DNA from: Desulfomonilia bacterium | Lineage (GTDB): Bacteria; Desulfobacterota; Desulfomonilia; UBA1062 | DNA length: 64,000 nt | NCBI GenBank assembly: GCA_050014195.1 | Contig: JBEKDT010000001.1 | Location: forward strand, 410,024 to 474,023 | Direction: 5' to 3' | In this document: positions 24,334 to 59,373 of the stretch, piece after piece | How positions within the stretch are numbered: the stretch's first letter is position 1 | How the letters are laid out: each line of letters opens with the position of its first letter | The notes under the pieces: model-generated | Told to the model about the DNA's origin: nothing | Databases searched by the model: none | The model's input: only the letters and a program-made list of their open reading frames with translations | Translations under genes and position numbers: made by a program

Positions 24334-24648
24334 AGAGCCTCCTCGTTATCATTATGCAAACCGACACTTGGGTAACTCATGCCCTGAATCAGCATATCTT
24401 TATACACCCCTTTGGATGCAAAACAAGCCTGCATAACCTCTCGAAGGGAATTATTTGATCAGATTGTTACGTATGCCAAAACGATGCCGAGTCCTGTCGG
24501 ATAAGACTAATCCTGCAACACAGGAAACCACTTCGAAATACCATGGTACACATATTTTAATAATCTAATGAAATTATTGTGGAATTAATCTTTCGAAAAG
24601 TTGGTATAGGAATTGTAAGTACCCACCCCATGTCAATAATCTTTATTT

Positions 24649-24942
24649 TTGATGAGGAGCTCATATATGTACAGGAAGAAGAACCGCGATGAGGTTTCAA
24701 AAACAAAGGAATTCACTGCTATCGACCCGTTGTACGATCTCATCGAGATCATGGGTGACCATCTCGTTCGAGTTTATGAGCACAGGGAGAAATCAAGAGA
24801 ACAAATAGGTAGCTATAAACAACCCTGCCAGGACCGCCTGATCGTCGAAGCGATAGCTGAATTCCTTATGACAGGCAAGTTCCAGCTCAGATGCCCGATC
24901 AACGAGTGGGAAAATGTCAGTGTGGGAAGGTTTGAACGCTGA
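24649..24942 (+). CDS. Hypothetical small protein
   Basis: 97-aa ORF in an AT-rich leader. It ends 10 nt before the ferredoxin start. No motif was recognised. Confidence 0.35.
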   Translation: MMRSSYMYRKKNRDEVSKTKEFTAIDPLYDLIEIMGDHLVRVYEHREKSREQIGSYKQPCQDRLIVEAIAEFLMTGKFQLRCPINEWENVSVGRFER

Positions 24943-24952
24943 GGGAGACTTT

Positions 24953-25147
24953 ATGAGCAGGGTTGTCTATCTTGTGGAAGAAGAATGTATCGGATGCGGA
25001 ATGTGTCAGGATACATGCCCGGAGGTGTTCAAGCTTAACGAGGAAACCAACGTTGCCGAGGTCATCAAGCCTGAAGGAGGCCCTGAAGACCTCATCCAGG
25101 AGGCCATCGATTCATGCCCTGTCGAATGCATCCATTGGAAGGAATGA
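24953..25147 (+). CDS. Small ferredoxin (single [3Fe/4Fe-4S] cluster type)
   Basis: CIGCGMCQDTCP...CPVECI cluster-binding cysteines. About 64 aa from the internal M (MSRVVYLV). Confidence 0.75.
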   Translation: MSRVVYLVEEECIGCGMCQDTCPEVFKLNEETNVAEVIKPEGGPEDLIQEAIDSCPVECIHWKE

Positions 25148-26861: not shown

Positions 26862-29800
26862 GCACTCTTCCCCTTCAGATAATTAATCATGGGCTGAGTG
26901 ACCAGCGGCACCACCTCTCCTATCATGTGGGGCATGAGGTTGGCAACGACCTTTGGCATGAGCTCAGGCATCTGCTCGCGCATGTAGTCGGGCATGGGGA
27001 TGCGCTCGGAGACCTTCTTGAGCATAGTAGGCATGACCTTGGGCATCATCATGGGCAGCAGCCTCGGGAACAGGACCGGGAACATGGGCTTCATGAGGTC
27101 GAGCGCACCCGGAATTTTGCCCATAATGCGCATCATGGGCCCCATGCCGAACGGCATGGCAGAGATGAGCTCGGACCACATGGTACCCATGAGGTCGGCG
27201 AACCCCTGCGGTGTCATGAGTGCTATCATGGCCTCGAACACGGCCCACTGCTTCTGCACTTCGGGATTGGGATCAGGGAAATCATACCCCAGGGCGGAAG
27301 AGGCGAATCGCGCCAAGTCCACTATTTCGAGCGGCATCTTCTTTTTTTCCGCAGTGACCCGGAACTGGAACTCGCAGCACGGGCACAGGGCCAGGACCTT
27401 CTGGGCTCCGGCATCCAATGCCTCGTTCAGACGCGTCTCCCCGATATCGGCGGCTACCAGGGGCTCCTTGAGGAGGTTGAGCACGCTCCCGCAGCAGTGC
27501 GCCTCGGCATGATGATAATCCATCTCCACGAATTTCACATGGGGGATCGCCTTGATGAGGTCCCGTGGCTCTTCATAAACACCCGATACACGGCCCATGT
27601 GGCACGAGTCATGCCAGGTTACCGTAACCTCTTCCTGCCCCGTATCCGGGAAGGTGAACTCGCCCGATCTGATCTTTTCCGAGAGGATCTCGCTGTAGTG
27701 GCGTGCCGTTATGTCATAATCGATACCCAGCTTTTTAGCCCATGTCGGGTAGACATGTCGCCACATCATATTGCATGCAGGGCAGGATGTAATAACGGTG
27801 TCACTGCCGGCTTCTTTGACAGCCTTAATGTTCCTCCTCATGATCGCTTCAAACACATCCCACTTGCCGGCAACCAGCATGGGCGTGCCGCAGCAGTTTT
27901 CCTTGTTGCCAACATAGGTGAAATCCACCCCTGCCTTATCCAGCAGCCGCACACTCGCCATGCCGATGTCCTCTTCCACATAGCTCGCGGTACACCCTGC
28001 GAAATAGACGTTCTTGGCCTTTGTGCCGGGGCCGTGCTTCTCCTTGAGGTCTTCTGGGAACCACTTGGCTCGGTCCTTACGGTAGCCGGCCCATATGTTG
28101 CCTTCCTTCATGGCTGCCGCCGACATGATCTCAAAGGGAGGGAAGGTCATCTTCTTTTCCTCATCTACGAGCTTGCCCCTGAGCTTCATCCAGGAAGGCT
28201 CTATGGGAAGCGCTGCAGAGCAACGGAAATTGCAGAGCTCGCAGGTGGTGCAGACCAGTATGGTGTCCACCATCTTCTGGTTCCACTCCTGCTTGCCTTT
28301 CATATACTCCCGCAACCAGTACCACTTGCCCCTTGGGCTCTGGCTCTCCCATCCGCGGCCGTAGAACTGATCACACTCATCCACACAGTAGCCGCACTGG
28401 GAGCAGCTGTAGGCATACCAGGCCACATCAGGCGGGATATCCCGAACATCTTTTTCAGGCCTCTCCCCCACTTCCGTGATAATGGCATAACTGAAAGGCC
28501 TGATGAGCGGCTCGAATATGCTCCCCAGTCTGACGGCAGTCCCGATGAGTCCTCCTCCGAGCACCTTGCCGGGGTTCAGTATCCCCTTGGGGTCGACCTT
28601 CTTTTTGAATGACTTCATCCGGGCAAGGCGGTCTTTTCCGAGGACCGCCTTTGCCTTGTTCTTGAAATAGAGCCCTGTGGCATACGCTCGTCCGCCATAT
28701 TTTTCAGCAATCTTCATGACCGTGAGCGACAGAGGGAAGACGAAGTTGTAGCTGAACTTCCGCTCATCGCTCGGGATGAATCCGAGGATGACCACCTCGG
28801 GCTTGCCGGATGCCGATTTCCTGATGACCACCCCCTCCTTGACCACGGGCTGCTGGATGGTGCTCTCCACCTTCTTCATGAAGTCGCCGAAGGAAGACAG
28901 CGGGATGACCACTTCGGCGGGTACAAGACTTGGACCCAAGCGCTTCACCACCATGAGCTTGAATCGGTGCTTCCATTCATGGTACGCAATTTTATCACTC
29001 AGGATCTCTGCCTCGCACAGTTTGATGATCTTGCCGAGGCCGCTCATAACCTGCCCTGCGTCCTTCTTACGGAAGGTGAGCGTGATGATGTAGGATGCAG
29101 GCAGGAGCACCCGCTCCTCTGCCGGGTGGCCCCAGTGCTCCATCATAGGTGCCTGGTTCTTCATCTCCGCCATCTTCGGGTTGATGAACACGATGGACCA
29201 TATGGGCAGGCCTTCGGATATCATTGCCTCCATGAGCTTCTGGAGGTCATGGGGGTTCGGACAGCCGATGGAGACCAGATCCATGGGCTCATCAAGCTGT
29301 ACCTTAATGGTGATCTCGCCGATCAGCCCGGTTATGCCTTCCGCATCACTGATCATATCGAGATCTTTCCCCTCGAACACGCTGACCGTACCATCGGGAA
29401 GCACGACGCGGGCACTCAGCACGATGTCCCTGAACCAGCCGGCTTCAAACGAACCGAAGCCTGCACCTCCCTGGGCAAGCCAGCCTCCTGCTGTTGAGCT
29501 CGGGTAGCTGGAAGGATAGGTAAGCAGCGTGAGGCCTTTCTTCTTCAGCTCGCGGTCAAGCCCTTCCCAAACAATACCAGGCTGGACAGTGGCTGTAAGC
29601 TTATCTTTATCGATAGAAAGCACCTTCTTCATGCGGTAGAAATCCACCACGATGCCGTTCTCAACGGGCAAAACTCCGCCGTAGCCCGAAGAAGCCTTGC
29701 CCCTCGGGGTGAGCGGGATATGGTTTTTGGCGGCCCACATCACCAGTTCTTTCAGCTCCTCTTCGCTCTGGGGCTGCACCACGGCATCGGGGGTGGTATC

Positions 29801-36638: not shown

Positions 36639-37166
36639 TCAGATTTGGGGTTCTACCAAAGCAAGCTCTCCGTCCTGGCGTTTGTAGATAAGATTGAGCT
36701 GCTTTGAATCCGTGTTCTGGAAGATAATAAAGTTTTGTGGTGCTTCACCCATCTCCATGACGGCCTCGTCAACACTCATGGGCCTGACGGGATAGTTCTT
36801 CTCATAGATGAGGCGCTGTTTTGCCTTTTTGCTGACCGGGGGCGCAGCTGCCACTGTTGCCGCCTTACCCTGCTGGGTCTTCTTACCCTGGAGCTTCTCC
36901 TTGTACTTCTTGAGCTGCCTTTCAAGCTTATCCATCACCATGTCGATGGCTGCATACAAGTCCTCGGTGATCTCTACGGCGTTGATGACCGTGCCGTCCG
37001 CGGTGAGGGTGACATCAGCCTTGTGCCGGCGCTTTTCCACAGAAAGGACGACATGCGCTTCAGCGGTGCGGTCGATGTATCTGTCCATCTTCGAGAGCCT
37101 TTTGAACGCGTAGTCTTTCAGCGCATCGGAAGAGTCAATGTTCTTAAAGGTAATGTCGGTCTGCAT
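36639..37166 (-). CDS. hpf: Ribosome hibernation-promoting factor (long HPF/RaiA, sigma-54 modulation protein)
   Basis: S30AE N-terminal domain (MQTDITFKNIDSSDALKDYAFKRL), linker and C-terminal domain; 175 aa. It lies immediately downstream of rpoN. Confidence 0.85.
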   Translation of the reverse strand: MQTDITFKNIDSSDALKDYAFKRLSKMDRYIDRTAEAHVVLSVEKRRHKADVTLTADGTVINAVEITEDLYAAIDMVMDKLERQLKKYKEKLQGKKTQQGKAATVAAAPPVSKKAKQRLIYEKNYPVRPMSVDEAVMEMGEAPQNFIIFQNTDSKQLNLIYKRQDGELALVEPQI

Positions 37167-37195
37167 AAATCCTCCTCTCGTGGTTAAACAATGAT

Positions 37196-38575
37196 TTAAA
37201 AGTGTTTCTTCCTCCGGTTTGAAGGAAGAATACCAAGCAGCTCACGGTACTTGGCAACGGTCCTGCGTGCTATCCTCACCCCTTTCCCTTTCAGTTTATG
37301 GGCTATGGCCTGGTCGCTCAGGGGATGTTTGGCATCCTCCGCCTTGATGATATTTTCAATTTCATTCTTAACGCTCTGGGATGCGATAAAACTTCCGTCG
37401 CTCTTGGATATACCGCTGTTGAAGAAATACTTGAGCTCGAATGTGCCCTGGGTCGTATGCACATATTTATTAGATGTAACCCTGCTGATGGTGGATTCAT
37501 GCATGCCCACATCATCGGCAACGTCTCTGAGGACTAATGGTTTCAGGTTCGTGATACCGTGGTCGAGAAAATCTTTCTGGAACTTGACGATGCTCTCTGT
37601 GACCTTGCACAGGGTATTCTGCCTCTGCTGGATGCTCTTTAAAAGCCACTGGGCAGACTTGTAGCAGTCGGAGAGGTAGTCCTTGGCCATCTTGCCCATA
37701 TTGTCGGACTTCATCATGATCTGGTATTCTTTGTTGAGCTTGAGCATGGGCAGATCCTCCTCATTGAGCAGGATCATATACTCCCCCTCCATTTTCACCA
37801 CATACACATCCGGGACGATGTACTGGGGGGGATCGTCTGAGTAATCACGGGCGGGACGGGGTTCCATGTTGACGATGATCTGGGCGGCCTGTGCCACATC
37901 ATCCACGGTTGCAGAAAGCTCCTGGGCGATCTTGTTGTAGTTTTTGGTCTGGAGGTCCTCCAGGTGGGAATCGATTATCCTCCACACCAGGGTGTTCTCC
38001 AGGTCCAGTATTCTCGCCTGGATCCTGAGGCAGTCCTTCAGGTCACGCGCCGCGATGCCGGGAGGGTCGAACCGCTGAACCTTGACAAGTACCGACTCAA
38101 CTATGTCGGGTGTTGACCCGGTTTCCTGGCATATGGTCTCGGTATCAAGCCCCATGTAGCCGTTATGATCGAGGTTGCCGATGATGAAGAGGCCCACTTC
38201 CTGTTCTTTATCGGTAAAATCATTCAGTCTCAACTGCCAGAGGAGATGGTCCATGAGCCCTTCGGGTTTGCAGGTAGTGGACTCGATGGAGGGCCGCTCA
38301 TCGTCTTCATAGTAGGGGATATTGTCCTGGCCGTATGTCTCCAGGTAGGCATCCCACCTTTGCCTGAGCTGTTCCTTCTCCTTGACGGATTCGGGGGTGT
38401 CCTCGCGTACACGGGCAATTTCCACATCGAGCAGCGGGTTTTGTTCGAGCTCGCTGTCGATATATTCCTGCAGCTCGAGCCTGCTAAGCTGCAGGAGTTT
38501 GATAGCCTGCTGGAGCTGTGGCGTCATTATGAGCTGCTGCGCCAGCTTGAGATGTTGCTTAAGCTCCAAGGCCAT
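37196..38575 (-). CDS. rpoN: RNA polymerase sigma-54 factor
   Basis: N-terminal LKQHLKLAQQLIMTPQLQQAIKLLQL (region I) and C-terminal RpoN box ARRTVAKYRE; 459 aa. Confidence 0.95.
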   Translation of the reverse strand: MALELKQHLKLAQQLIMTPQLQQAIKLLQLSRLELQEYIDSELEQNPLLDVEIARVREDTPESVKEKEQLRQRWDAYLETYGQDNIPYYEDDERPSIESTTCKPEGLMDHLLWQLRLNDFTDKEQEVGLFIIGNLDHNGYMGLDTETICQETGSTPDIVESVLVKVQRFDPPGIAARDLKDCLRIQARILDLENTLVWRIIDSHLEDLQTKNYNKIAQELSATVDDVAQAAQIIVNMEPRPARDYSDDPPQYIVPDVYVVKMEGEYMILLNEEDLPMLKLNKEYQIMMKSDNMGKMAKDYLSDCYKSAQWLLKSIQQRQNTLCKVTESIVKFQKDFLDHGITNLKPLVLRDVADDVGMHESTISRVTSNKYVHTTQGTFELKYFFNSGISKSDGSFIASQSVKNEIENIIKAEDAKHPLSDQAIAHKLKGKGVRIARRTVAKYRELLGILPSNRRKKHF

Positions 38576-38587
38576 CCTTAACTCCTC

Positions 38588-39316
38588 CTAGAGAGAAAAG
38601 TCCTTACCCACATAGATCTGCTTGACCTTCTCATTCGCCACAACCTGTTCCGGGGTTCCTTCCTCAATTACAAGACCCTGATGGATAATATATGCCCTGT
38701 CACATATCTTCAGGGTTTCTTTTACATTATGATCCGTAATAATGACACCAATTCCCAATTTTTTCAAGTTTACTATCATATCCTGAATGTCATTGACCGT
38801 GATGGGGTCAATCCCTGCAAAAGGCTCATCCAGGAGCATGTATGCGGGGCTCAGGGCCATGGCCCTGGCGATCTCCACCCGGCGCCTCTCACCTCCGGAG
38901 AGAGAGACGCCTTTTTGAGTACGCACTTGATCAAGACCGAAGCTTGCCACGATCTCATCACGGTGCTGTTTCAGCTCAATCCCTTTCAACCCCCTGGCCT
39001 CCAAGGGGACAGAGATGTTGTCTTCCACGCTCAACCCCCTGAACACAGAGGGCTCCTGGGGCAGGTAGCCGATGCCTCGCATGGCGCGACCCGCGAGATC
39101 GATGCCGGTGATGTCGTCAGTACCGAGAAATACCTTGCCCTTGTCCGGGCGGATGAGACCCACGATCATGTAGAATGTCGTGGTCTTCCCCGCTCCGTTC
39201 GGGCCGAGCAGTCCGATGATCTCGCCCTTGTTGCAGGCAATGGAGAGGCCTCTGATGACGTACACCTTCCCAAAGCTCTTCTCAAGGCCATCGGCCTTCA
39301 GCGTCATTTCCCCCAT
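38588..39316 (-). CDS. lptB: LPS export ABC transporter ATP-binding protein
   Basis: Walker A GPNGAGKTT, ABC signature LSGGERRRVEIARA, and Walker B LLDEPFAGID; 242 aa. Confidence 0.9.
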   Translation of the reverse strand: MGEMTLKADGLEKSFGKVYVIRGLSIACNKGEIIGLLGPNGAGKTTTFYMIVGLIRPDKGKVFLGTDDITGIDLAGRAMRGIGYLPQEPSVFRGLSVEDNISVPLEARGLKGIELKQHRDEIVASFGLDQVRTQKGVSLSGGERRRVEIARAMALSPAYMLLDEPFAGIDPITVNDIQDMIVNLKKLGIGVIITDHNVKETLKICDRAYIIHQGLVIEEGTPEQVVANEKVKQIYVGKDFSL

Positions 39317-39810
39317 TGCATGATCCCCGTACTCTCTCCGGCATTCACCCGAACTTTCACCCTGCGGCCGGCACCTTCAACCACCTGAGTGTCGTTTTTC
39401 TTATCCAGTGTCACCTTCTGGCCGATGATTTTCTCCTGGCCTCTGGTGATGACGACATCACCCGTCATTACCATTACATCACTGACAAGATCATACACCG
39501 CCTTGGCACATGTTGCCTCTTTGTCTTTCCATAAGATATCCACATCACCTTCAGCGGTTAACATGTTGACCTTGTGTGATTTCTGGTCGTAGACCAACGT
39601 CAGGGTATTTCCCTTGACCGTGATATCGGGTTTCGTAGCCTTCACTCTGCCTTTGAATATCGCTGTACCGTTCTTGGTGTTCACGTCCAGTCTGTCCGCC
39701 TCGATGTCAACCATATCGGATACCTTAGGCGGTGTCTTGAGGCCTTCCGCATGAAGGGCATACGGCCAGAGAAGGCTAAAGATTAAGAATATTCTGCATA
39801 ACCTTTGCAT
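39304..39810 (-). CDS. lptA: LptA (OstA-like periplasmic LPS transport protein)
   Basis: A signal peptide follows the internal M (MQRLCRIFLIFSLLWPYALHA), and the protein has an OstA-like beta-jellyroll. It sits between lptC and lptB. Confidence 0.7.
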   Translation of the reverse strand: MQRLCRIFLIFSLLWPYALHAEGLKTPPKVSDMVDIEADRLDVNTKNGTAIFKGRVKATKPDITVKGNTLTLVYDQKSHKVNMLTAEGDVDILWKDKEATCAKAVYDLVSDVMVMTGDVVITRGQEKIIGQKVTLDKKNDTQVVEGAGRRVKVRVNAGESTGIMQWGK

Positions 39811-40309
39811 GGACCCTTCCGATACAAGCGATATTGGTGAATTGGTCGGAAAATTCCGCCCTGTCGGCCGTGATGACTCCACTTTCCCCCTCGATAACTA
39901 TTGGGTTATCCGTATGGGCAAAATTCTTTACCCTATCCCAGGTGAGGTTATTGAGCCTGGCGCGGGACCCGTTTTGTGTTTCAATGTTCACCGGTCCCTT
40001 AACCTCAAGGATGGATTTGGCGCGATCGTAGAAGGCATCTACACCGCTCAGCTTTAGCCCGCCGGTCTGTGTAAGGACAAAGTCTTTGAGACGCACGTCT
40101 TGATCCCCTGTCTCATCCACCTCCCGGGCGGACACTTCCATGGTCTTGTTATTTTGGCGATTGCGTTCGTACATGACTACATTCATGGCCTGTCGCCTTG
40201 GCTGCGTGCCCTTATTCAGGGATGGCGCCATTTGATTATCGCGGGAAACGGAGATGATGAAAGCCAGTACGACGATCACACCCGTCAATAGAATCAGCTT
40301 ATTCCACAT
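39776..40309 (-). CDS. lptC: LptC
   Basis: Single N-terminal transmembrane helix plus a periplasmic domain; 177 aa. Its position between kdsC and lptA matches the conserved order. Confidence 0.65.
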   Translation of the reverse strand: MWNKLILLTGVIVVLAFIISVSRDNQMAPSLNKGTQPRRQAMNVVMYERNRQNNKTMEVSAREVDETGDQDVRLKDFVLTQTGGLKLSGVDAFYDRAKSILEVKGPVNIETQNGSRARLNNLTWDRVKNFAHTDNPIVIEGESGVITADRAEFSDQFTNIACIGRVHAKVMQNILNL

Positions 40310-40802
40310 AGCGTTCCATGATCTTGTCGAAAAGCCCCTCGCGCTTCAGGATGATCTCTATGGCCTCCCTGACGGCGCCGTGACCGCCCGGCCTCGTGGT
40401 AACCACTTCGGCCCTCTCCTTGACCATATCCATGGCATCGGCCGGGGCAAAGGTCATACCGCACAGGGCCATGGGGGGAATGTCCACCACATCGTCCCCC
40501 ATGTAGGCCATATTGGTCGTGCTTATGCCGAGTTTCTGCGCCGCTTCCAACAGTGCCGGCTTCTTGTCTATTGCCCCCTGGAAGACGTGCGTAATACCGA
40601 GCTCATGCGCCCTGTACTCCAGTGCCTTTGATGTCCTGCCGGTGATAATGACCACCTCGATACCGGCCCGCAGGAGCATCCTCAGCCCGTGTCCGTCCTT
40701 GCTGTTGAAGGCCTTGATCTGGATACCTTCATCGGTGAAGTAGATGGAAGAGTCTGTCAGTACGCCATCCACATCGAGCACCAGGCACGAGATCTTGTTC
40801 AT
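40299..40802 (-). CDS. kdsC: 3-deoxy-D-manno-octulosonate 8-phosphate phosphatase
   Basis: HAD motif LVLDVDGVLTD and KdsC-like length (167 aa). Confidence 0.85.
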   Translation of the reverse strand: MNKISCLVLDVDGVLTDSSIYFTDEGIQIKAFNSKDGHGLRMLLRAGIEVVIITGRTSKALEYRAHELGITHVFQGAIDKKPALLEAAQKLGISTTNMAYMGDDVVDIPPMALCGMTFAPADAMDMVKERAEVVTTRPGGHGAVREAIEIILKREGLFDKIMERYVE

Positions 40803-41626
40803 GAGGTTACCTCGTGGATCTTTTTCAGCTGTACTAAAAGAGGTTCCAGCCGATCGAGCCTCAGGCTGTTCGGGCCGTCGCTGAGTGCCTGATCCGGGTT
40901 GTCGTGCACCTCCAGGAAGATACCGTCAAGCCCGAAGGCCACACCGGCCCGGGCAAGCTGAACGATATACTCGGCATTGCCACCCGATGATGAGCCCTGT
41001 CCTCCGGGGAGTTGGAGACTGTGGGTCACATCGAGGATTACGGGAAAGCCGAGCGAACGCATGACGGCAAGGCTCCTCAAATCGCACACCAGGTTGTTGT
41101 AGCCCAGACTCACTCCGCGTTCGGTAAGGATAATAGCATTGTTCCCGGTGCTTTGCACCTTTGCTGTTACATTGCCCATGTCCCAGGGTGCCATGAACTG
41201 TCCCTTCTTGATGTTTACCGGCAGGCCCGTCTTGCCTGCTGCAACGAGGAGATCGGTCTGCCTGCACAGAAAGGCAGGGATCTGGAGCATGTCCAGGACA
41301 TGAGCGGCAGGACCTGCCTGCAAAGGGTCGTGGATGTCCGAGGTGACGGGGATGGAAAGACGTTTCTTGATATCCAGAAGGATATGAAGGCCCATCTCGA
41401 GACCGGGCCCCCGGTATGAATCGATGGATGAGCGGTTCGCCTTATCAAAGGATGCCTTGAAGATATAGGGGATCCCCATGCGGGAGGTGATATCGCGAAT
41501 ACTTTCCGCCATGAACAGGGCATGGTCCTGCGATTCAATGACGCACGGGCCCGCGACCAGCACCAGATCGCCGGAACCGATAGTGATGTCATGAATCTTT
41601 ACCTTTTGCATATACCCCTGCCGCAC
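40799..41626 (-). CDS. kdsA: 2-dehydro-3-deoxyphosphooctonate aldolase (KDO8P synthase)
   Basis: LVLVAGPCVIES...IPYIFKASFDKANRSS; 275 aa. The start may be the internal M at about 41611. Confidence 0.9.
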   Translation of the reverse strand: MRQGYMQKVKIHDITIGSGDLVLVAGPCVIESQDHALFMAESIRDITSRMGIPYIFKASFDKANRSSIDSYRGPGLEMGLHILLDIKKRLSIPVTSDIHDPLQAGPAAHVLDMLQIPAFLCRQTDLLVAAGKTGLPVNIKKGQFMAPWDMGNVTAKVQSTGNNAIILTERGVSLGYNNLVCDLRSLAVMRSLGFPVILDVTHSLQLPGGQGSSSGGNAEYIVQLARAGVAFGLDGIFLEVHDNPDQALSDGPNSLRLDRLEPLLVQLKKIHEVTS

Positions 41627-45196: not shown

Positions 45197-45476
45197 CAAG
45201 TACTCCTTTTTTAAATCATATCAACACCGATCTTCATCCTAAGATTCGATATTCCTGCGAAAAAGGATTTGTCCTGTCCCACAAGACAATCAGCGATAAA
45301 CCACAAGGAATGAGGAAACCCGTAGATGCTAATAATATAATGAAATTATTTAACATTAAATATTCTACCGCGATGGCACGCCTATTGAATACATCAGATG
45401 ATAAGAGATATGAGTGCCAGCCATGTAATCAAAGGCAGGACTCGGGTTATGAAGATTAATCACGTGGAGGTTAGTC

Positions 45477-45740
45477 ATGAATTCATATACGGAATCAAGC
45501 TTAGGCAAGGATGGATCGAACACTACGAGAATAACCACACTCTACGATCTTATGGAAGAGATCAATGCAGAACAGATCAGCCCACAAAGGGATCCAGGCA
45601 GTTACAGTATCCAGGACCCTGCGGGGAATGGTCGATTCAGTCCGGCGGCAGAGAAGGTTTTTCAGATGTTTGAATCGGGACAAATCAGGTTCAAGAATCT
45701 CCAGGATGTCAAAAGAAAATATGCTGGGTGGCTATTCTGA
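45477..45740 (+). CDS. Hypothetical small protein
   Basis: 87-aa ORF in an AT-rich spacer between the SDR and sigma-factor genes. There is no recognisable motif, so the coding status is uncertain. Confidence 0.3.
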   Translation: MNSYTESSLGKDGSNTTRITTLYDLMEEINAEQISPQRDPGSYSIQDPAGNGRFSPAAEKVFQMFESGQIRFKNLQDVKRKYAGWLF

Positions 45741-45805: not shown

Positions 45806-46606
45806 ATGGGGAAGGAAATACCTATGGACAACTCTTATGATTATATGGATTTTCAACAATACTACAGGGAAATTCAGCAATACCCAACTCTAACCCATGA
45901 GAAAGAGTATGAACTGGCAAAACAATATCAAAAGGGCGACGAAGCTGCCGGACAGCAATTAATCCAGGCGAACCTCAGGTTTGTGGTGAGGGTGAGCAGG
46001 AAATATTTTTATTGCGGTCACCATTGCCTCGAGATCATTCAGGAAGGAAACCTTGGTCTCATCAGAGCCCTTAATCGTTTTGACCCTGAGCGAGGGATAC
46101 CTTTTGTCTACTATGCAGTTTGGTGGGTTGAAGCCTTCATCAAGGCTTTCATGCACAAGAGCGGAAAGGTGAACACGGGGAGTCTGAGTCATGCCAAGAA
46201 ATTGCACTCATTGGATGAACACCTTGGAAACGATGACGATAAAGACCGATGGATTGATTTTCTCACAGATGGTGCTGATCCGGAGAAAATGTATAATGGC
46301 AGGGAGTCATCTCAAAATATTTCATCCGTACTCCATCATTGCTTCACCTTCCTCTCTCCAAGGGAAATATCTGTCCTGAAACAACGATTTTATTCTGATC
46401 CGCCTGTTAAGCTTAAGGAAATAGGGATGCAACTTGGTGTAAGCAGAGAACGTGTCAGACAAATCCAGACAAGATCCATGGAAAAATTAAAACAAATTTT
46501 AGAAGATCAGGTAAAGGGCCTTTGGGAGTCAACAACCCATGATTCCCATCCACTCACCGAGATCAATCAACTGGGGTTTATACGGAGAGGAGAATATCAA
46601 AACTGA
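45806..46606 (+). CDS. RNA polymerase sigma factor, sigma-70 family (group 3-like)
   Basis: Region 2 (IQEGNLGLIRALNRFDPERG...YAVWWVEAFI) and region 4 HTH (REISVLKQRF...EIGMQLGVSRERVRQIQTRSMEKLK); 266 aa. The start may be the ATG at 45824. Confidence 0.8.
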   Translation: MGKEIPMDNSYDYMDFQQYYREIQQYPTLTHEKEYELAKQYQKGDEAAGQQLIQANLRFVVRVSRKYFYCGHHCLEIIQEGNLGLIRALNRFDPERGIPFVYYAVWWVEAFIKAFMHKSGKVNTGSLSHAKKLHSLDEHLGNDDDKDRWIDFLTDGADPEKMYNGRESSQNISSVLHHCFTFLSPREISVLKQRFYSDPPVKLKEIGMQLGVSRERVRQIQTRSMEKLKQILEDQVKGLWESTTHDSHPLTEINQLGFIRRGEYQN

Positions 46607-46663: not shown

Positions 46664-48094
46664 TTGGAGAAAAGACTTTATCATGTTCAAGTGCCCATAG
46701 GTAATCAGGAAAAGATACTTGTTATCGATGATGACAATCTTGTCTGCAGTTCCATAGCAAACGTTGCTAAAGCCTTGGGATACAATGCTACGACAGCCCT
46801 TACCCTGAAAGAAGGCATCGAGTCGGTTAACAAGGAACCGTATGATGTAGTGTTTCTTGATGTGCATATGCCTGATGGGAACGGGATCGAAATGCTTCCC
46901 AAAATCTGCCAGAGTGGCGGCCGACCTGAAGTTATCGTCATAACCGCCTATGGAGATCCGGAATCAGTCGAGACAGCCCTTTCCCGGGGGGCCTGGGATT
47001 ACATTGAAAAACCCTTTTCGAAGAACGATCTTGTCCATCTGTTAAAAGATGCAATTCTCTTTCATGAAAGCAATAAGCAACCATTGATCAGCGTAGATTT
47101 TGAGAAAGAGGGGATCATTGGTAAGAGTTCCCAGATGAGAGAATGCCTGGCATTACTAAGCAAGACATTAAACAGTGATGCCAATGTGCTGCTTACCGGC
47201 GAAACAGGAACGGGTAAAGATCTCTTTGCGCTGGCAATCCACAATAACTCCAGCCGCGCCAAGAATAACTTTATTGTGGTCGACTGTGCCTCCTTGCCCC
47301 CGAATCTGGTGGAAAGCATTCTTTTCGGTCACGAGAAGGGATCATATACCAGTGCGGATAAAGCGCAGCAAGGTCTGGTCATACAGGCCCACAGGGGGAC
47401 ACTGTTTCTGGATGAAGTGGGTGAACTCCCCCTGTCCATCCAGCAAAAGTTCCTGCGTATCCTCCAGGAGGGTCGCTTCCGTCCTGTCGGAAAACCCACT
47501 GAGATTGAAAGCGATTTCAGAATCATATCTGCCACAAACCAGAATCTGGACAATTTAGCAGAGATAAAAAGATTCCGAAAAGATCTCCTCTTCAGACTCA
47601 AATCCATCACCATCCATCTCCCTGCACTCAGAGATCGACCCGAGGATATCCTGGAATTGACAAATCACTACCTGCAAAAACTCTGCAAGAAATATGGCAT
47701 GAAACCAAAGCGCCTCAGTACTGCATTTAGAGATACCATCATGCAGTATGCCTGGCCCGGTAATGTACGTGAATTGATTCACGCACTGGAGAGCTCGCTT
47801 ACGGTTGCACATGATAGTGCCATCCTGGTCCCAAAACATCTTCCACACCATATTCATGTGCAGGTGAAGCAAAATACTGTTGCAGCTAAAAAAAAGAAAC
47901 CGCTGCGCATTGCGACAAACAACAGCCTTTCCAGCCTCAATGAGGTGCGGGAAGAGGCTATCGCTGAGATAGAACAGCAGTATCTTAAGGAGTTGATGAT
48001 CCGGACAAAAGCCCATATTGAGACAGCCTGCAGAATATCCGGGCTATCCCGCTCGCGTCTCTACGCCTTGCTGAAGAAGTACAACATATCATAG
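46664..48094 (+). CDS. Sigma-54-dependent response regulator (NtrC family: REC + AAA+ + Fis-type HTH)
   Basis: REC (ILVIDDD...DVVFLDVHMPDGNG), Walker A GETGTGKD, ESxLFGHEKG, and a C-terminal HTH. The GAFTGA loop reads GSYTSA. The start is a TTG at 46664 or a GTG at 46691, so the N-terminus is uncertain. Confidence 0.85.
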   Translation: MEKRLYHVQVPIGNQEKILVIDDDNLVCSSIANVAKALGYNATTALTLKEGIESVNKEPYDVVFLDVHMPDGNGIEMLPKICQSGGRPEVIVITAYGDPESVETALSRGAWDYIEKPFSKNDLVHLLKDAILFHESNKQPLISVDFEKEGIIGKSSQMRECLALLSKTLNSDANVLLTGETGTGKDLFALAIHNNSSRAKNNFIVVDCASLPPNLVESILFGHEKGSYTSADKAQQGLVIQAHRGTLFLDEVGELPLSIQQKFLRILQEGRFRPVGKPTEIESDFRIISATNQNLDNLAEIKRFRKDLLFRLKSITIHLPALRDRPEDILELTNHYLQKLCKKYGMKPKRLSTAFRDTIMQYAWPGNVRELIHALESSLTVAHDSAILVPKHLPHHIHVQVKQNTVAAKKKKPLRIATNNSLSSLNEVREEAIAEIEQQYLKELMIRTKAHIETACRISGLSRSRLYALLKKYNIS

Positions 48095-48243
48095 TATTCT
48101 TGAATCGATATTTCATACGTGCATTCCTGCCGGAAGAGACTAGTCCTCCCACACAGGACAATCAGCATTCACTCTTGAAAGATATGCGTATCATGAAATC
48201 ATGTAACAAACTAATATTACATGCTGTCTCTTAATCTTCAACA

Positions 48244-48258
48244 ATGGCATGGTAATTG
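48244..48258 (+). promoter_or_regulatory. Sigma-54-like -24/-12 element upstream of the PEP-CTERM gene
   Basis: TGGCATG-GTAA-TTGA compared with the consensus TGGCACG-N4-TTGCW. The -24 half is canonical and the -12 GC is replaced by GA. It lies about 47 nt upstream of the ATG at 48305. Confidence 0.3.
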
Positions 48259-48304
48259 AGTATCCTTGTACGAAGGCATCCCAGAGAGAAAGGTACTGAA
48301 CGAT

Positions 48305-48628
48305 ATGGAAAATAAGATTTTGCTGTTGTCAGTAATTATGTTTTTCGGATTCTCGGTCCTTTCAGGGGCTACACCCATTGAATTTAAAAATCGGCATGTA
48401 ATCCTTGGCTATACCCCCATAACCTTGAGACAGCCTTCGGCCCAAGTGGGTAAGGCCTTCTCTGTCGGGGTGCATAACATTAAAAACACACTCGCGTTTT
48501 CTATGAGTGAACTCAAGAATACTTCTGCTCCCGCCCCTCTACCCAAGCCCTCAACCCTTTTTCTTCTTGGTTGTGGAATTATTTTCTCCGTTGGTTTCAG
48601 CAAAAGATACAGGCAACACAAAGAATGA
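48305..48628 (+). CDS. PEP-CTERM-like sorting-signal small secreted protein
   Basis: N-terminal signal peptide (MENKILLLSVIMFFGFSVLSGA). The C-terminus reads PLPKPSTLFLLGCGIIFSVGFSKRYRQHKE, giving a P-x-P motif, a hydrophobic helix and a basic tail. Confidence 0.55.
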   Translation: MENKILLLSVIMFFGFSVLSGATPIEFKNRHVILGYTPITLRQPSAQVGKAFSVGVHNIKNTLAFSMSELKNTSAPAPLPKPSTLFLLGCGIIFSVGFSKRYRQHKE

Positions 48629-48736: not shown

Positions 48737-49102
48737 ATGAATGCTACTCAGACCGAGACCAGATATTATATTTTCAAGTGTCGAGACCATGAATGCAATG
48801 AAACTATACCGGTAATATCTTTCATCTCTCAATATGCCTTTTCAGCAGGGAGTATCTATCTGAAAAGACAAGCCATTGAGAGAGACTATGACCTCATCAC
48901 CGTCGATGTCATATGTCCGTTCTGCTGCGCAGCAAATCACTTCCAGATAATGGAAAATAAAAAGGAGTTAAGCAGGCAGGATTATGATGAAGCAAGCAAG
49001 GTCATGGAGGTAAAATTGGCGTTGAGACATGAGCTCAATAAGATACTTGCACATGATTACAAGGGTCAGCCAGATGTTGTCTCTACAATACCCTTAAGGT
49101 AA
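48737..49102 (+). CDS. Hypothetical Cys-rich small protein
   Basis: 121 aa with C-x-D-H-E-C and C-P-F-C-C clusters, which may bind zinc. There is no homology call. Confidence 0.4.
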   Translation: MNATQTETRYYIFKCRDHECNETIPVISFISQYAFSAGSIYLKRQAIERDYDLITVDVICPFCCAANHFQIMENKKELSRQDYDEASKVMEVKLALRHELNKILAHDYKGQPDVVSTIPLR

Positions 49103-52702: not shown

Positions 52703-54157
52703 ATGGCTCATATTTTGCGTCCATCAAATCAGTACAATGGAACTACTGGAAACAATCGTATGAGGCCAAGCTTAAAAACCCTATCGGATAAGGGGGATAT
52801 CATCATGAAAAATGAAAAATTATTCTATGAGAAGAGAGAAAAGTCGGCAGGCGCAAGATACACGATCGGTAAATTTGATAAGGTACCGGAATCCTGTAAG
52901 CTTAAGAAGTGTCGATGGATTAAATGGTGCGCTACCCCTGCCGAAAACCTGATTTATGCCACAGCCGCCGATTTCACAGATCATAAGCCTGCCGATGCGG
53001 CGCAAAAAGAGAGGCTTGAGAATAAATTTATCCAGACCCGGGAAATTGAGTCTATCGAAAAAGGTGGTATTGCCCATGATTTCAATAACATCCTCACAGC
53101 CATTATGGGGTATACAGAGCTTGCAATAGATAATGCCTCAGAACCGGATAAGGTAAAGCAGAATCTGAAGAAGGCACTCATGGCGAGCACCCGGGCAAGA
53201 GACCTTGTGAGCCAGATCATAACCTTCAGCCGTCAGGCCGATAAAAAGTTCACCCCTATAAAGTTTAACTTTGCCATAATAGAATCACTCTGGATGTTAC
53301 GTCCAATGATACCCTCGAACATCAAGATCAGACAGAATCTTAAGGTCCCTGCTATGGTCATGGCTGATCCCACCCAGATTCACCAGGTCATGATGAACCT
53401 CTGTTCCAATGCGGTCCATGCCATGGTCGAGGATGGGGGTGAGTTGGATGTAAGGTTGGAAAAATCGATTATTTATGGTGATACGAATGCCCATGATCCG
53501 GATCTGCCCGCAGGGTCCTATGTAAAGCTTACCATCAGTGATACCGGGCAGGGCATGCCCCCCGAGGTCATGAAACGGATCTTTGATCCTTATTTCACCA
53601 CAAAAGAAAAAGAATTAGGACGCGGCAGAGGCCTGGGTTTATCGGTCGTTCATGGGATCGTGAAAAGTCATGGAGGCGCGATCACCTGTATGAGCACACC
53701 AGGAGAAGGGACTTCCTTTGTCATATATCTCCCTGAGATTGAATCCGGGAAAGAGACCATCGGAACCATCGAGGAAACGTCTCTCCCCACGGGAACCGAG
53801 CGGATTCTTTTTATAGATGATGAGCAGGTTATTGTGAATCTGGCAGAAGAGATGCTGAGTAAGCTGGGATATGATGTCGTTGCCAAAACAAGCAGCGTCG
53901 AGGCCCTTGCGTTATTTCAAGAAAACCCTGACAAATTTGACCTGATCATTACCGATATGTCCATGCCGGCCATGACAGGAGATAGTCTGGCTCAAAATAT
54001 CCTTGGTCTGCGCAGCGATATCCCCATCATCCTGTGCACCGGATATAGTAAAGATATCACTGAGGAGAAGGCAAAGAGTATCGGCATTCGAGAGTTTATC
54101 ATGAAGCCGGTAGAAATGAGGGTGATGGCTGAAACCATCCGGAAGGTGCTTGATTAA
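52703..54157 (+). CDS. Hybrid sensor histidine kinase (HisKA + HATPase_c + C-terminal receiver)
   Basis: HDFNNILTAIMGY H-box, G boxes (DTGQGM, GRGLGLS), and a C-terminal REC (ILFIDDE...DLIITDMSMPAMTG). The start is probably internal (MKNEKL at about 52805). Confidence 0.8.
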   Translation: MAHILRPSNQYNGTTGNNRMRPSLKTLSDKGDIIMKNEKLFYEKREKSAGARYTIGKFDKVPESCKLKKCRWIKWCATPAENLIYATAADFTDHKPADAAQKERLENKFIQTREIESIEKGGIAHDFNNILTAIMGYTELAIDNASEPDKVKQNLKKALMASTRARDLVSQIITFSRQADKKFTPIKFNFAIIESLWMLRPMIPSNIKIRQNLKVPAMVMADPTQIHQVMMNLCSNAVHAMVEDGGELDVRLEKSIIYGDTNAHDPDLPAGSYVKLTISDTGQGMPPEVMKRIFDPYFTTKEKELGRGRGLGLSVVHGIVKSHGGAITCMSTPGEGTSFVIYLPEIESGKETIGTIEETSLPTGTERILFIDDEQVIVNLAEEMLSKLGYDVVAKTSSVEALALFQENPDKFDLIITDMSMPAMTGDSLAQNILGLRSDIPIILCTGYSKDITEEKAKSIGIREFIMKPVEMRVMAETIRKVLD

Positions 54158-58734: not shown

Positions 58735-59373
58735 TCAAGTGCCGTCCCAGCCCGAGTCCAGGAGTATCCTGATACCCTCAGCCCTGGTTAATCCTATACC
58801 CTCGACTTTCTGAAGCTCCTCAACAGAGGCATTCATGACCCTTGATATCGACCCGAAATGCCCCATCAATCTCTTTGCAAGCCTTGGCCCTATCAGCGGA
58901 AGCCCCTGAAGGAGATACAACTGCCGTGACCTGAGCCTCCTGGGCCGATATCCGCCTCGCAAAGGAACAACGTCCATGTCTTTATCATACTGTGATCCTA
59001 TCATAATCAAAATGTCTCTGGTGTGTTCCTTTGAGCGGGAAAATATCACCGGGGTATGCCAGATCGTCTGAACCGATATGATTGACCCTCTTATGGCATT
59101 GCTGTTGAAATCAAGGTCTGTCATGTATGGATCGCCTTCTATGAGAAGGATCGGACGGCGGCAATACTTTTTCAAATTCGAGAGTTGCCTGAATAACCGC
59201 GTGTCAACTAAAGAGATGAGGAAATCCTTTGCGGTCTTTCTCTCGATGGTTATGGAATCGTTGATCACATAGTCGCCATACGGCAGAGCCTTGACCCGAA
59301 TCTGGATATCATCTCGTGCAAGCTGGTCAATGAGGCCGGAGTCTTTTTCCCGATAATCTATATCTATCCTCAT
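58735..59373 (-). CDS. Short XPF/ERCC4-type nuclease with C-terminal tandem helix-hairpin-helix domain
   Basis: GDYVINDSITIERKTAKD matches the ERCC4 GDx(n)ERKxxxD catalytic signature. The C-terminus GLPLIGPRLAKRLMGHFGSISRVMNASVEELQKVEGIGLTRAEGI is (HhH)2-like; 212 aa. Confidence 0.65.
   Translation of the reverse strand: MRIDIDYREKDSGLIDQLARDDIQIRVKALPYGDYVINDSITIERKTAKDFLISLVDTRLFRQLSNLKKYCRRPILLIEGDPYMTDLDFNSNAIRGSIISVQTIWHTPVIFSRSKEHTRDILIMIGSQYDKDMDVVPLRGGYRPRRLRSRQLYLLQGLPLIGPRLAKRLMGHFGSISRVMNASVEELQKVEGIGLTRAEGIRILLDSGWDGT

Follow-up and report, generated by a model that had tools for sequence, protein, structure and literature searches.

A natural GSYTSA variant of the L1 loop in a predicted sigma-54-dependent activator next to a sigma factor gene in Desulfomonilia

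The 64,000-nucleotide stretch of Desulfomonilia DNA analyzed here (contig JBEKDT010000001.1, positions 410,024 to 474,023; hereafter the window) carries a gene for an NtrC-family response regulator, the activator, in which the L1 loop, the counterpart of the GAFTGA motif, reads GSYTSA. The gene directly follows that of a sigma-70-family factor, as an earlier sequence-only reading had stated, and two sigma-54-type promoters, each with an upstream dyad, flank the group (Table 1). That reading had raised the possibility of a weak, specialized or non-canonical activator, perhaps one working with sigma-70. We consider it quite probable, from the loop comparisons and promoter architecture described below, that the protein is instead a genuine sigma-54-dependent enhancer-binding response regulator with tolerated natural substitutions in its L1 loop, placed within a two-component, sigma-54 to sigma-70-family cascade.

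Table 1. Features of the window discussed in the text, in order of position.
Feature	Position	Strand	Basis or remark
Tentative third regulon site	24491..24942	+	dyad, weaker -24/-12 motif, orf87-family paralogue
rpoN (sigma-54), canonical region I and RpoN box	37196..38575	-	TIGR02395, 448 bits against a cut-off of 277
Upstream activating sequence A, dyad GTCCTGtcccaCAAGAC	45271..45287	+	centre 96 bp upstream of promoter A GG
Sigma-54-type promoter A TGGCACgcctaTTGAATA, -12 = A	45374..45391	+	motif scan, cross-locus conservation; predicted start ~45400
orf87, conserved small protein without known domain	45477..45740	+	first gene past promoter A
RpoS/RpoH-like sigma-70-family factor, regions 1.2, 2 and 4	45806..46606	+	profile matches; immediately upstream of activator
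Activator gene (receiver, sigma-54 AAA+, Fis-type helix-turn-helix)	46691..48094	+	open reading frame, profile matches, database copy
Receiver domain of activator	46715..47044	+	PF00072, residues 18-127
Sigma-54 interaction AAA+ domain of activator	47114..47617	+	PF00158, E=1.3e-61, residues 151-318
L1 loop GSYTSA, counterpart of GAFTGA	47339..47356	+	structure-homologue alignment
C-terminal Fis-type helix-turn-helix ACRISGLSRSRLYALLKKY	48026..48082	+	HTH_8, weak match
Upstream activating sequence B, dyad GTCCTcccacaCAGGAC	48143..48159	+	centre 95 bp upstream of promoter B GG
Sigma-54-type promoter B TGGCATggtaaTTGAGTA	48245..48262	+	motif scan; predicted start ~48271
Small secreted protein, 107 aa, signal peptide, weak PEP-CTERM-like C-terminal anchor LPKPSTLFLLGCGIIFSVGFSKRYR	48305..48628	+	
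orf121, possibly co-transcribed from promoter B	48737..49102	+	open reading frame; L020 homologue
Hybrid histidine kinase without PAS domains	52703..54157	+	36-37% identical to PAS-containing kinases directly preceding orthologous activators

The activator and its L1 loop

The longest open reading frame of the activator runs from a TTG at 46664 to 48094 (476 aa); because its 99%-identical database copy, P0001, has 467 aa, we place the start at the GTG at 46691. A receiver domain is followed by a Sigma54_activat domain that covers the PF00158 model from end to end (1-168), an AAA_lid_14 domain and a weak Fis-type helix-turn-helix (HTH), which is presumed to be the reader of the dyads. Every catalytic and signaling motif is intact: in the receiver, VIDDD (46721-46735) as the acidic pocket, VFLDVHMPDG (46850-46879) around the phospho-acceptor and IEKPF (47003-47017) with the conserved Lys; in the AAA+ part, Walker A GETGTGK (47198-47218) and the ESILFGHEKG segment (47312-47341), both of which the sequence-only reading had recognized, together with Walker B LFLDEVGE (47402-47425), the R-finger region RFRKDLLFRL (47570-47599) and sensor II (47759-47776). 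None of the named NCBIfam equivalogs fits the protein. It scores 344.5 bits against a cut-off of 558.6 for NtrC proper (TIGR01818) and 299.5 bits against 502.6 for PrsR, the PEP-CTERM-box response regulator (TIGR02915), and stays below cut-off for AtoC, ZraR, GlrR, LuxO and every other equivalog. Between 41.8 and 57.6 kb, the genes examined included none for the PrsK kinase, PrsT or an exosortase, and the one connection to PrsR is the small protein encoded downstream, with its weak PEP-CTERM-like tail.

The segment GHEKGSYTSA is encoded at 47327-47356, one base further downstream than first reported (47326-47355). When the protein was compared with solved structures by phmmer, 'lfghekgsytsa' paired column by column, with no indel, with 'LFGHEKGAFTGA' of Aquifex NtrC4 (3dzd) and NtrC1, and GSYTSA aligned likewise gap-free with the GAFTGA of 4l4u. 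The loop thus keeps its six-residue length and departs from GAFTGA in exactly the three substitutions previously counted, namely A2S, F3Y and G5S, with the position-3 aromatic residue (as Tyr) and the position-4 Thr, the two that published work regards as critical, retained.

The Ser5 codon, AGT, lies a single transition away from GGT. GSYTSA is confined to the species-level lineage of the window, which might raise the suspicion that Ser5, or the loop as a whole, is a sequencing or assembly error, or that the gene is a decaying one. We regard this as barely credible. L005, a contig of an independent metagenome-assembled genome (MAG), encodes a 97% identical enhancer-binding protein (EBP) that also reads GSYTSA, and the loop therefore does not reflect an artefact; it is present in the protein cluster P0001 as well, and the reading frame is intact at 467-476 aa with its motifs preserved.

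Loop states among homologues and in the literature

Among the 120 best activator homologues the loop could be read in 117, where GAYTGA was the most frequent state (50), followed by GSYTGA (37), GAFTGA (19), GAFTSA (6), GAYTSA (2) and GSYTSA (1). GSYTGA is found in nearly all homologues of 60-78% identity. Judged by this distribution, the loop of the window is the clade state plus one further G-to-S change (GGT to AGT), and in this species Ser5 arose recently by a single transition.

On a neighbor-joining tree the loop states interleave, with A/S and F/Y switching repeatedly and G5S appearing in at least five separate positions on three backgrounds (GAFTSA, GAYTSA and GSYTSA), while Gly1, Thr4 and Ala6 are constant throughout. 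Such repeated switching is as expected for near-neutral change. It can be followed even within a single syntenic orthologue group, where most members have GSYTGA, L014, L015, L016 and L020 have GAYTGA, L019 has GAFTGA, and the window and L005 have GSYTSA. Since these four states stand before one promoter type, the loop drifts inside one regulon. We note separately a 64% identical homologue, P0032, with the loop GASTGA, in which Ser takes the place of Phe/Tyr; published work predicts loss of activity from such a change, and P0032 may therefore be an activator that is truly defective or has been repurposed.

Published surveys agree with this latitude. The description of GAFTGA as invariant was overstated. 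Of the 37 EBPs surveyed in Desulfovibrio vulgaris, only 25 have the exact hexapeptide (PMC4641369), as do just 355 of the 490 surveyed in clostridia, and the clostridial study lists GSYTGA twice and GAFTSA once in its supplement (PMC6615313). Among substitutions with experimental validation, Francke et al. list A2S (LevR), F3Y (TouR) and G5D (Campylobacter FlgR); as inactivating they give only replacements of Thr4, and of Phe3 by residues other than Tyr (PMC3162934). The loop of HrpS is always GAYTGA, and in this sigma-54-dependent protein changing the Tyr to Phe raised activity by 50% (PMC3105312). The thought that the same variant might occur in activators of established sigma-54 dependence thus holds residue by residue, though not for the exact hexapeptide; none of the loop hexapeptides that we searched for in the supplements of Francke et al. 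was found there. GAFTGA is in our opinion best regarded as a consensus, of which Ser2, Tyr3 and Ser5 are recurrent, tolerated departures, and the loop alone therefore offers no basis for calling an activator defective or sigma-70-dependent.

Promoters, orthologous loci and the proposed cascade

The motif GGCAY-N5-TTGWDTA occurs exactly twice in the 64 kb of the window, against 0.12 occurrences expected, both times on the + strand and flanking the operon. Downstream of promoter A come orf87, the sigma-70-family gene and the activator. Promoter B, which the sequence-only reading had already noticed at 48244-48258, lies just past the activator and 34 nt ahead of the corrected start (48305) of the gene for a small secreted protein. 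Both upstream activating sequences are inverted repeats of the form GTCCTG-N5-CAGGAC, and what gives them weight is where they lie and that they are conserved across loci, not their number in the window.

The orthologous loci come from a scan of species-representative genomes and two contig look-ups, and the relatives carry the labels Desulfomonilia, Syntrophaceae or Thermodesulfobacteriota. In every one with enough flank, a sigma gene 55-75% identical to that of the window lies within 1-4 kb of the activator, with a yGGCAC-N5-TTGAATA -24/-12 motif upstream of it, either directly or before an orf87 homologue and a LonC-like gene. When 19 of these promoter regions were placed in register, cGGCAC-N5-TTGAATA (17-18 nt) was the sole conserved block besides an AT-rich stretch, and no conserved -35/-10 pair was seen among them. 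The dyad is present with at most two mismatches in 17 of the 19, compared with 0.6% of shuffled sequences, and in 13 of the 19 it is centred 93-97 bp from the GG. Upstream of the orthologues' type-B promoters it was not found, mismatches there being at background; only promoter B of the window has one.

These observations bear on the notion that the activator is sigma-54-independent, like TyrR, HupR, DhaR, VpsR or Rhodobacter NtrC, and uses a sigma-70-type holoenzyme, perhaps with the adjacent sigma factor. The threefold departure from GAFTGA and the adjoining sigma-70-family gene speak for it. However, the loop is of full length and keeps the Tyr and Thr, whereas the sigma-70-dependent homologues lack these features (for TyrR, DhaR, HupR and VpsR the literature reports deletions in the loop or loss of its F/T), the conserved DNA block has -24/-12 spacing, sigma-70-like promoter matches in the window are at or below chance, and the window has its own rpoN. 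With the individual substitutions precedented as well, we find the earlier suggestion of a weak or sigma-70-type activator unsupported, and consider sigma-54 independence very improbable.

All promoters of the regulon and its relatives have TTGA or TTGT, not TTGC, at -12. Whether this base goes with the activator loop was examined; the GAFTGA locus L019 and the GAYTGA loci L014, L015, L016 and L020 share TTGA/TTGT promoters with the GSYTGA loci, and covariation of loop and -12 base was rejected. More distant GAFTGA homologues at 41-48% identity (Desulfotignum and other Desulfobacterales) also show TGGCAY-N5-TTGA/T right after the gene, so that on this comparison the non-C base at -12 is a family-wide trait, independent of loop sequence. 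The form found after the activator gene in L023-L040 is TGGCAY-gcatc-TTGAtat (for example L026 4101, L029 9563, L033 9562 and L038 9663). Functional sigma-54 promoters of this kind are on record in Salmonella, where pspA (TGGCACGCAAATTGTATT), pspG, hydN and STM0649.S (TGGCACGCCTTTTGATTA) have a base other than C at -12, with TTGT or TTGA in pspA, pspG and STM0649.S (PMC3844500); promoter A (TGGCACGCCTATTGAATA) matches TGGCACGCCTTTTGATTA in 16 of 18 positions. The Salmonella promoters differ in their activators (PspF for pspA and pspG), and there the non-C base is a minority, compared with its uniformity in the present regulon.

A subtler alternative is that the Ser2/Tyr3 loop, with or without Ser5, reduces or modifies the coupling to region I of sigma-54 and is co-adapted to the TTGA/TTGT promoters, whereby the gain of the cascade, or its basal level, would be set. 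Conservation of GSYTGA across the clade, the uniform lack of C at -12 and the gain of activity in HrpS on replacing its natural Tyr would all fit. Yet loci with other loop states have promoters of this type too, the non-C base at -12 is shared even by distant homologues with GAFTGA, and the loop switches repeatedly on the tree; we therefore think this explanation unlikely. Of the proposed specialized activity, accordingly, modest quantitative tuning is possible, and a defect deduced from the loop alone is unsupported. One may go further and imagine that the clade-fixed loop (plus Ser5 here) is non-neutral, a tuned sigma-54 contact which, working with the non-C -12 regulon, sets a special gain or basal level of a previously undescribed Desulfomonilia/Syntrophales-like cascade, with the orf87 family and, in most relatives, a stand-alone HTH protein as new modulators. 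This idea we hold to be more doubtful still.

Returning to the reading of the activator as a sigma-54-dependent EBP with a tolerated loop, we propose the following scenario. A hybrid histidine kinase would phosphorylate the receiver domain, and the activator would then oligomerize on the GTCCTG-N5-CAGGAC dyads ~95 bp upstream of the two -24/-12 promoters, where its ATP hydrolysis would remodel the sigma-54 holoenzyme, the loop Tyr and Thr making contact with sigma-54 region I. Promoter A, the architecture of which is conserved, would drive orf87, the RpoS/RpoH-like sigma factor and probably the activator gene itself, which implies positive autoregulation; promoter B would drive the small secreted, PEP-CTERM-like protein and perhaps orf121. 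The RpoS/RpoH-like factor might then redirect transcription. The activator has the features of the EBP class, namely the AAA+ motifs, a GAFTGA-type loop, a sigma-54 encoded by the same genome and -24/-12 promoters with an upstream enhancer, and a sigma-54-type promoter with an EBP before the gene of another sigma factor is, as far as architecture goes, the arrangement of a sigma cascade.

Several points weigh against this scenario. Published precedent appears to cover each substitution class singly and not the exact hexapeptide GSYTSA, and G5S in particular was rated merely 'putative functional' by Francke et al. (PMC3162934). The -12 element lacks the consensus C, and by number alone the dyads of the window (3, where 1.94 would be expected) show no enrichment. 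Co-transcription of the sigma gene and the activator gene is probable only to the extent that a short gap, in which no + strand terminator is predicted, makes it so. Lastly, the window has no adjacent kinase gene, LonC-like gene or small HTH gene. In most orthologous loci, unlike the window, the activator gene is directly preceded by that of a hybrid kinase with PAS domains and closely followed by a second promoter, TGGCAT-N5-TTGTTAT, behind which an 80-aa stand-alone HTH protein is encoded; the local circuit is therefore a reduced version. From this comparison the activator gene in the present lineage has lost its adjacent kinase, and the hybrid kinase at 52703-54157 is a possible partner, a candidate only.

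Several known systems resemble the present one in part. HrpS (with HrpR) of Pseudomonas syringae is an AAA+ EBP with a natural Tyr3 loop that works with sigma-54 on the gene of another sigma factor, hrpL; it differs in having no receiver domain, in forming a hetero-oligomer with HrpR and in lacking Ser2 and Ser5, and HrpL is an extracytoplasmic function (ECF) sigma factor, not an RpoS/RpoH-like one. In the Rrp2-RpoN-RpoS cascade of Borrelia burgdorferi, an NtrC-type EBP with a hybrid kinase partner and sigma-54 activate an RpoS-type sigma gene (PMC3037356, PMC2940757); the lineage is unrelated, and the present system has the dyad ~95 bp upstream, orf87 and often the LonC-like gene. Salmonella rpoH is listed as a sigma-54 target (PMC3844500), so that control of an RpoH-like sigma gene by sigma-54 has a precedent. 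For the protein itself, Aquifex aeolicus NtrC4 and NtrC1 (PDB 3dzd, 4l4u, 1ny5) are the best solved matches (3dzd, E=6e-78), alike in their REC-AAA+(-HTH) order and gap-free L1 loop and different in their canonical GAFTGA and their targets. LevR (GSFTGA), TouR (GAYTGA) and Campylobacter FlgR (Asp5) each share one substitution class with the activator, and none combines all three.

We see the interest of the locus mainly in its clean regulon and natural loop series and less in the loop itself. The series GAFTGA, GAYTGA, GSYTGA and GSYTSA before the same promoter type could be used to gauge the effect of the L1 loop on output, and the dyad, its ~95 bp spacing, the non-C -12 promoters, the small protein family and the sigma factor make up a defined, testable regulon in uncultured Thermodesulfobacteriota, a further example of a sigma-54 to sigma-70-family sigma cascade.

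Neighboring genes and further sites

The closest solved homologues of the sigma-70-family factor are RpoS, then primary sigmas and RpoH; it reaches no NCBIfam equivalog. The rpoN gene belongs to a complete kdsA-kdsC-lptC-lptA-lptB-rpoN-hpf cluster at 36639-41626 on the - strand, ~8 kb from the activator.

Proteins of the orf87 family have ~90-100 aa, no Pfam or NCBIfam match and the motifs LYDL.E and F..G.I.F; in many loci they lead the genes behind the type-A sigma-54 promoter, and they could modulate the linked sigma factor. Two paralogues are present in the window. Direct BLASTP between orf87 and the second, at 24667, gives E=0.36, which is not significant, and their homology was established only through the homologue in L008 (10320-10628; E=1e-8 and 2e-11).

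Two further genes of the orthologous loci deserve mention. The LonC-like AAA_32 gene stands between orf87 and the sigma gene in many of them (L008 10871-12652), overlapping the sigma start codon; besides the window, it is missing from L005, L015 and L002. The stand-alone Fis-type HTH protein is ~55% identical to the C-terminal HTH of the activator, and TGGCAT-N5-TTGTTAT lies 12-17 nt before its ATG (L008 9636-9907; L006, L007, L009, L010, L012, L013, L014, L019 and L028), which would leave the transcript with almost no leader; the protein itself might be a competitor for the enhancer.

For the 107-aa secreted protein behind promoter B, assignment to PEP-CTERM proper failed (NF041538, E=0.0035, 17 bits against a cut-off of 100), and 'PEP-CTERM-like' was kept. 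At L020 (9722-11635) a second type-A-like promoter, TGGCACggctaTTGAATA, stands directly before the orf121 homologue, and behind this homologue lies another sigma-70-family gene, a divergent one (28% identity); the arrangement suggests that orf121 is part of the regulon.

The third dyad of the window, GTCCTGtcggaTAAGAC (24491-24507), has a weaker -24/-12 motif, TGGTATaggaaTTGTAAGT (24602-24620), 104 bp downstream of it, and this motif precedes the orf87 paralogue (24667-24942) and a 4Fe-4S ferredoxin gene (24914-25147). The site at 24491-24620 may be a further regulon member. Elsewhere, the palindromic TGGCACGAGTCATGCCA at 27600-27616 scores as -24/-12-like on both strands, and a further match, TGGCATtgctgTTGAaat, lies at 59094-59109 on the + strand.

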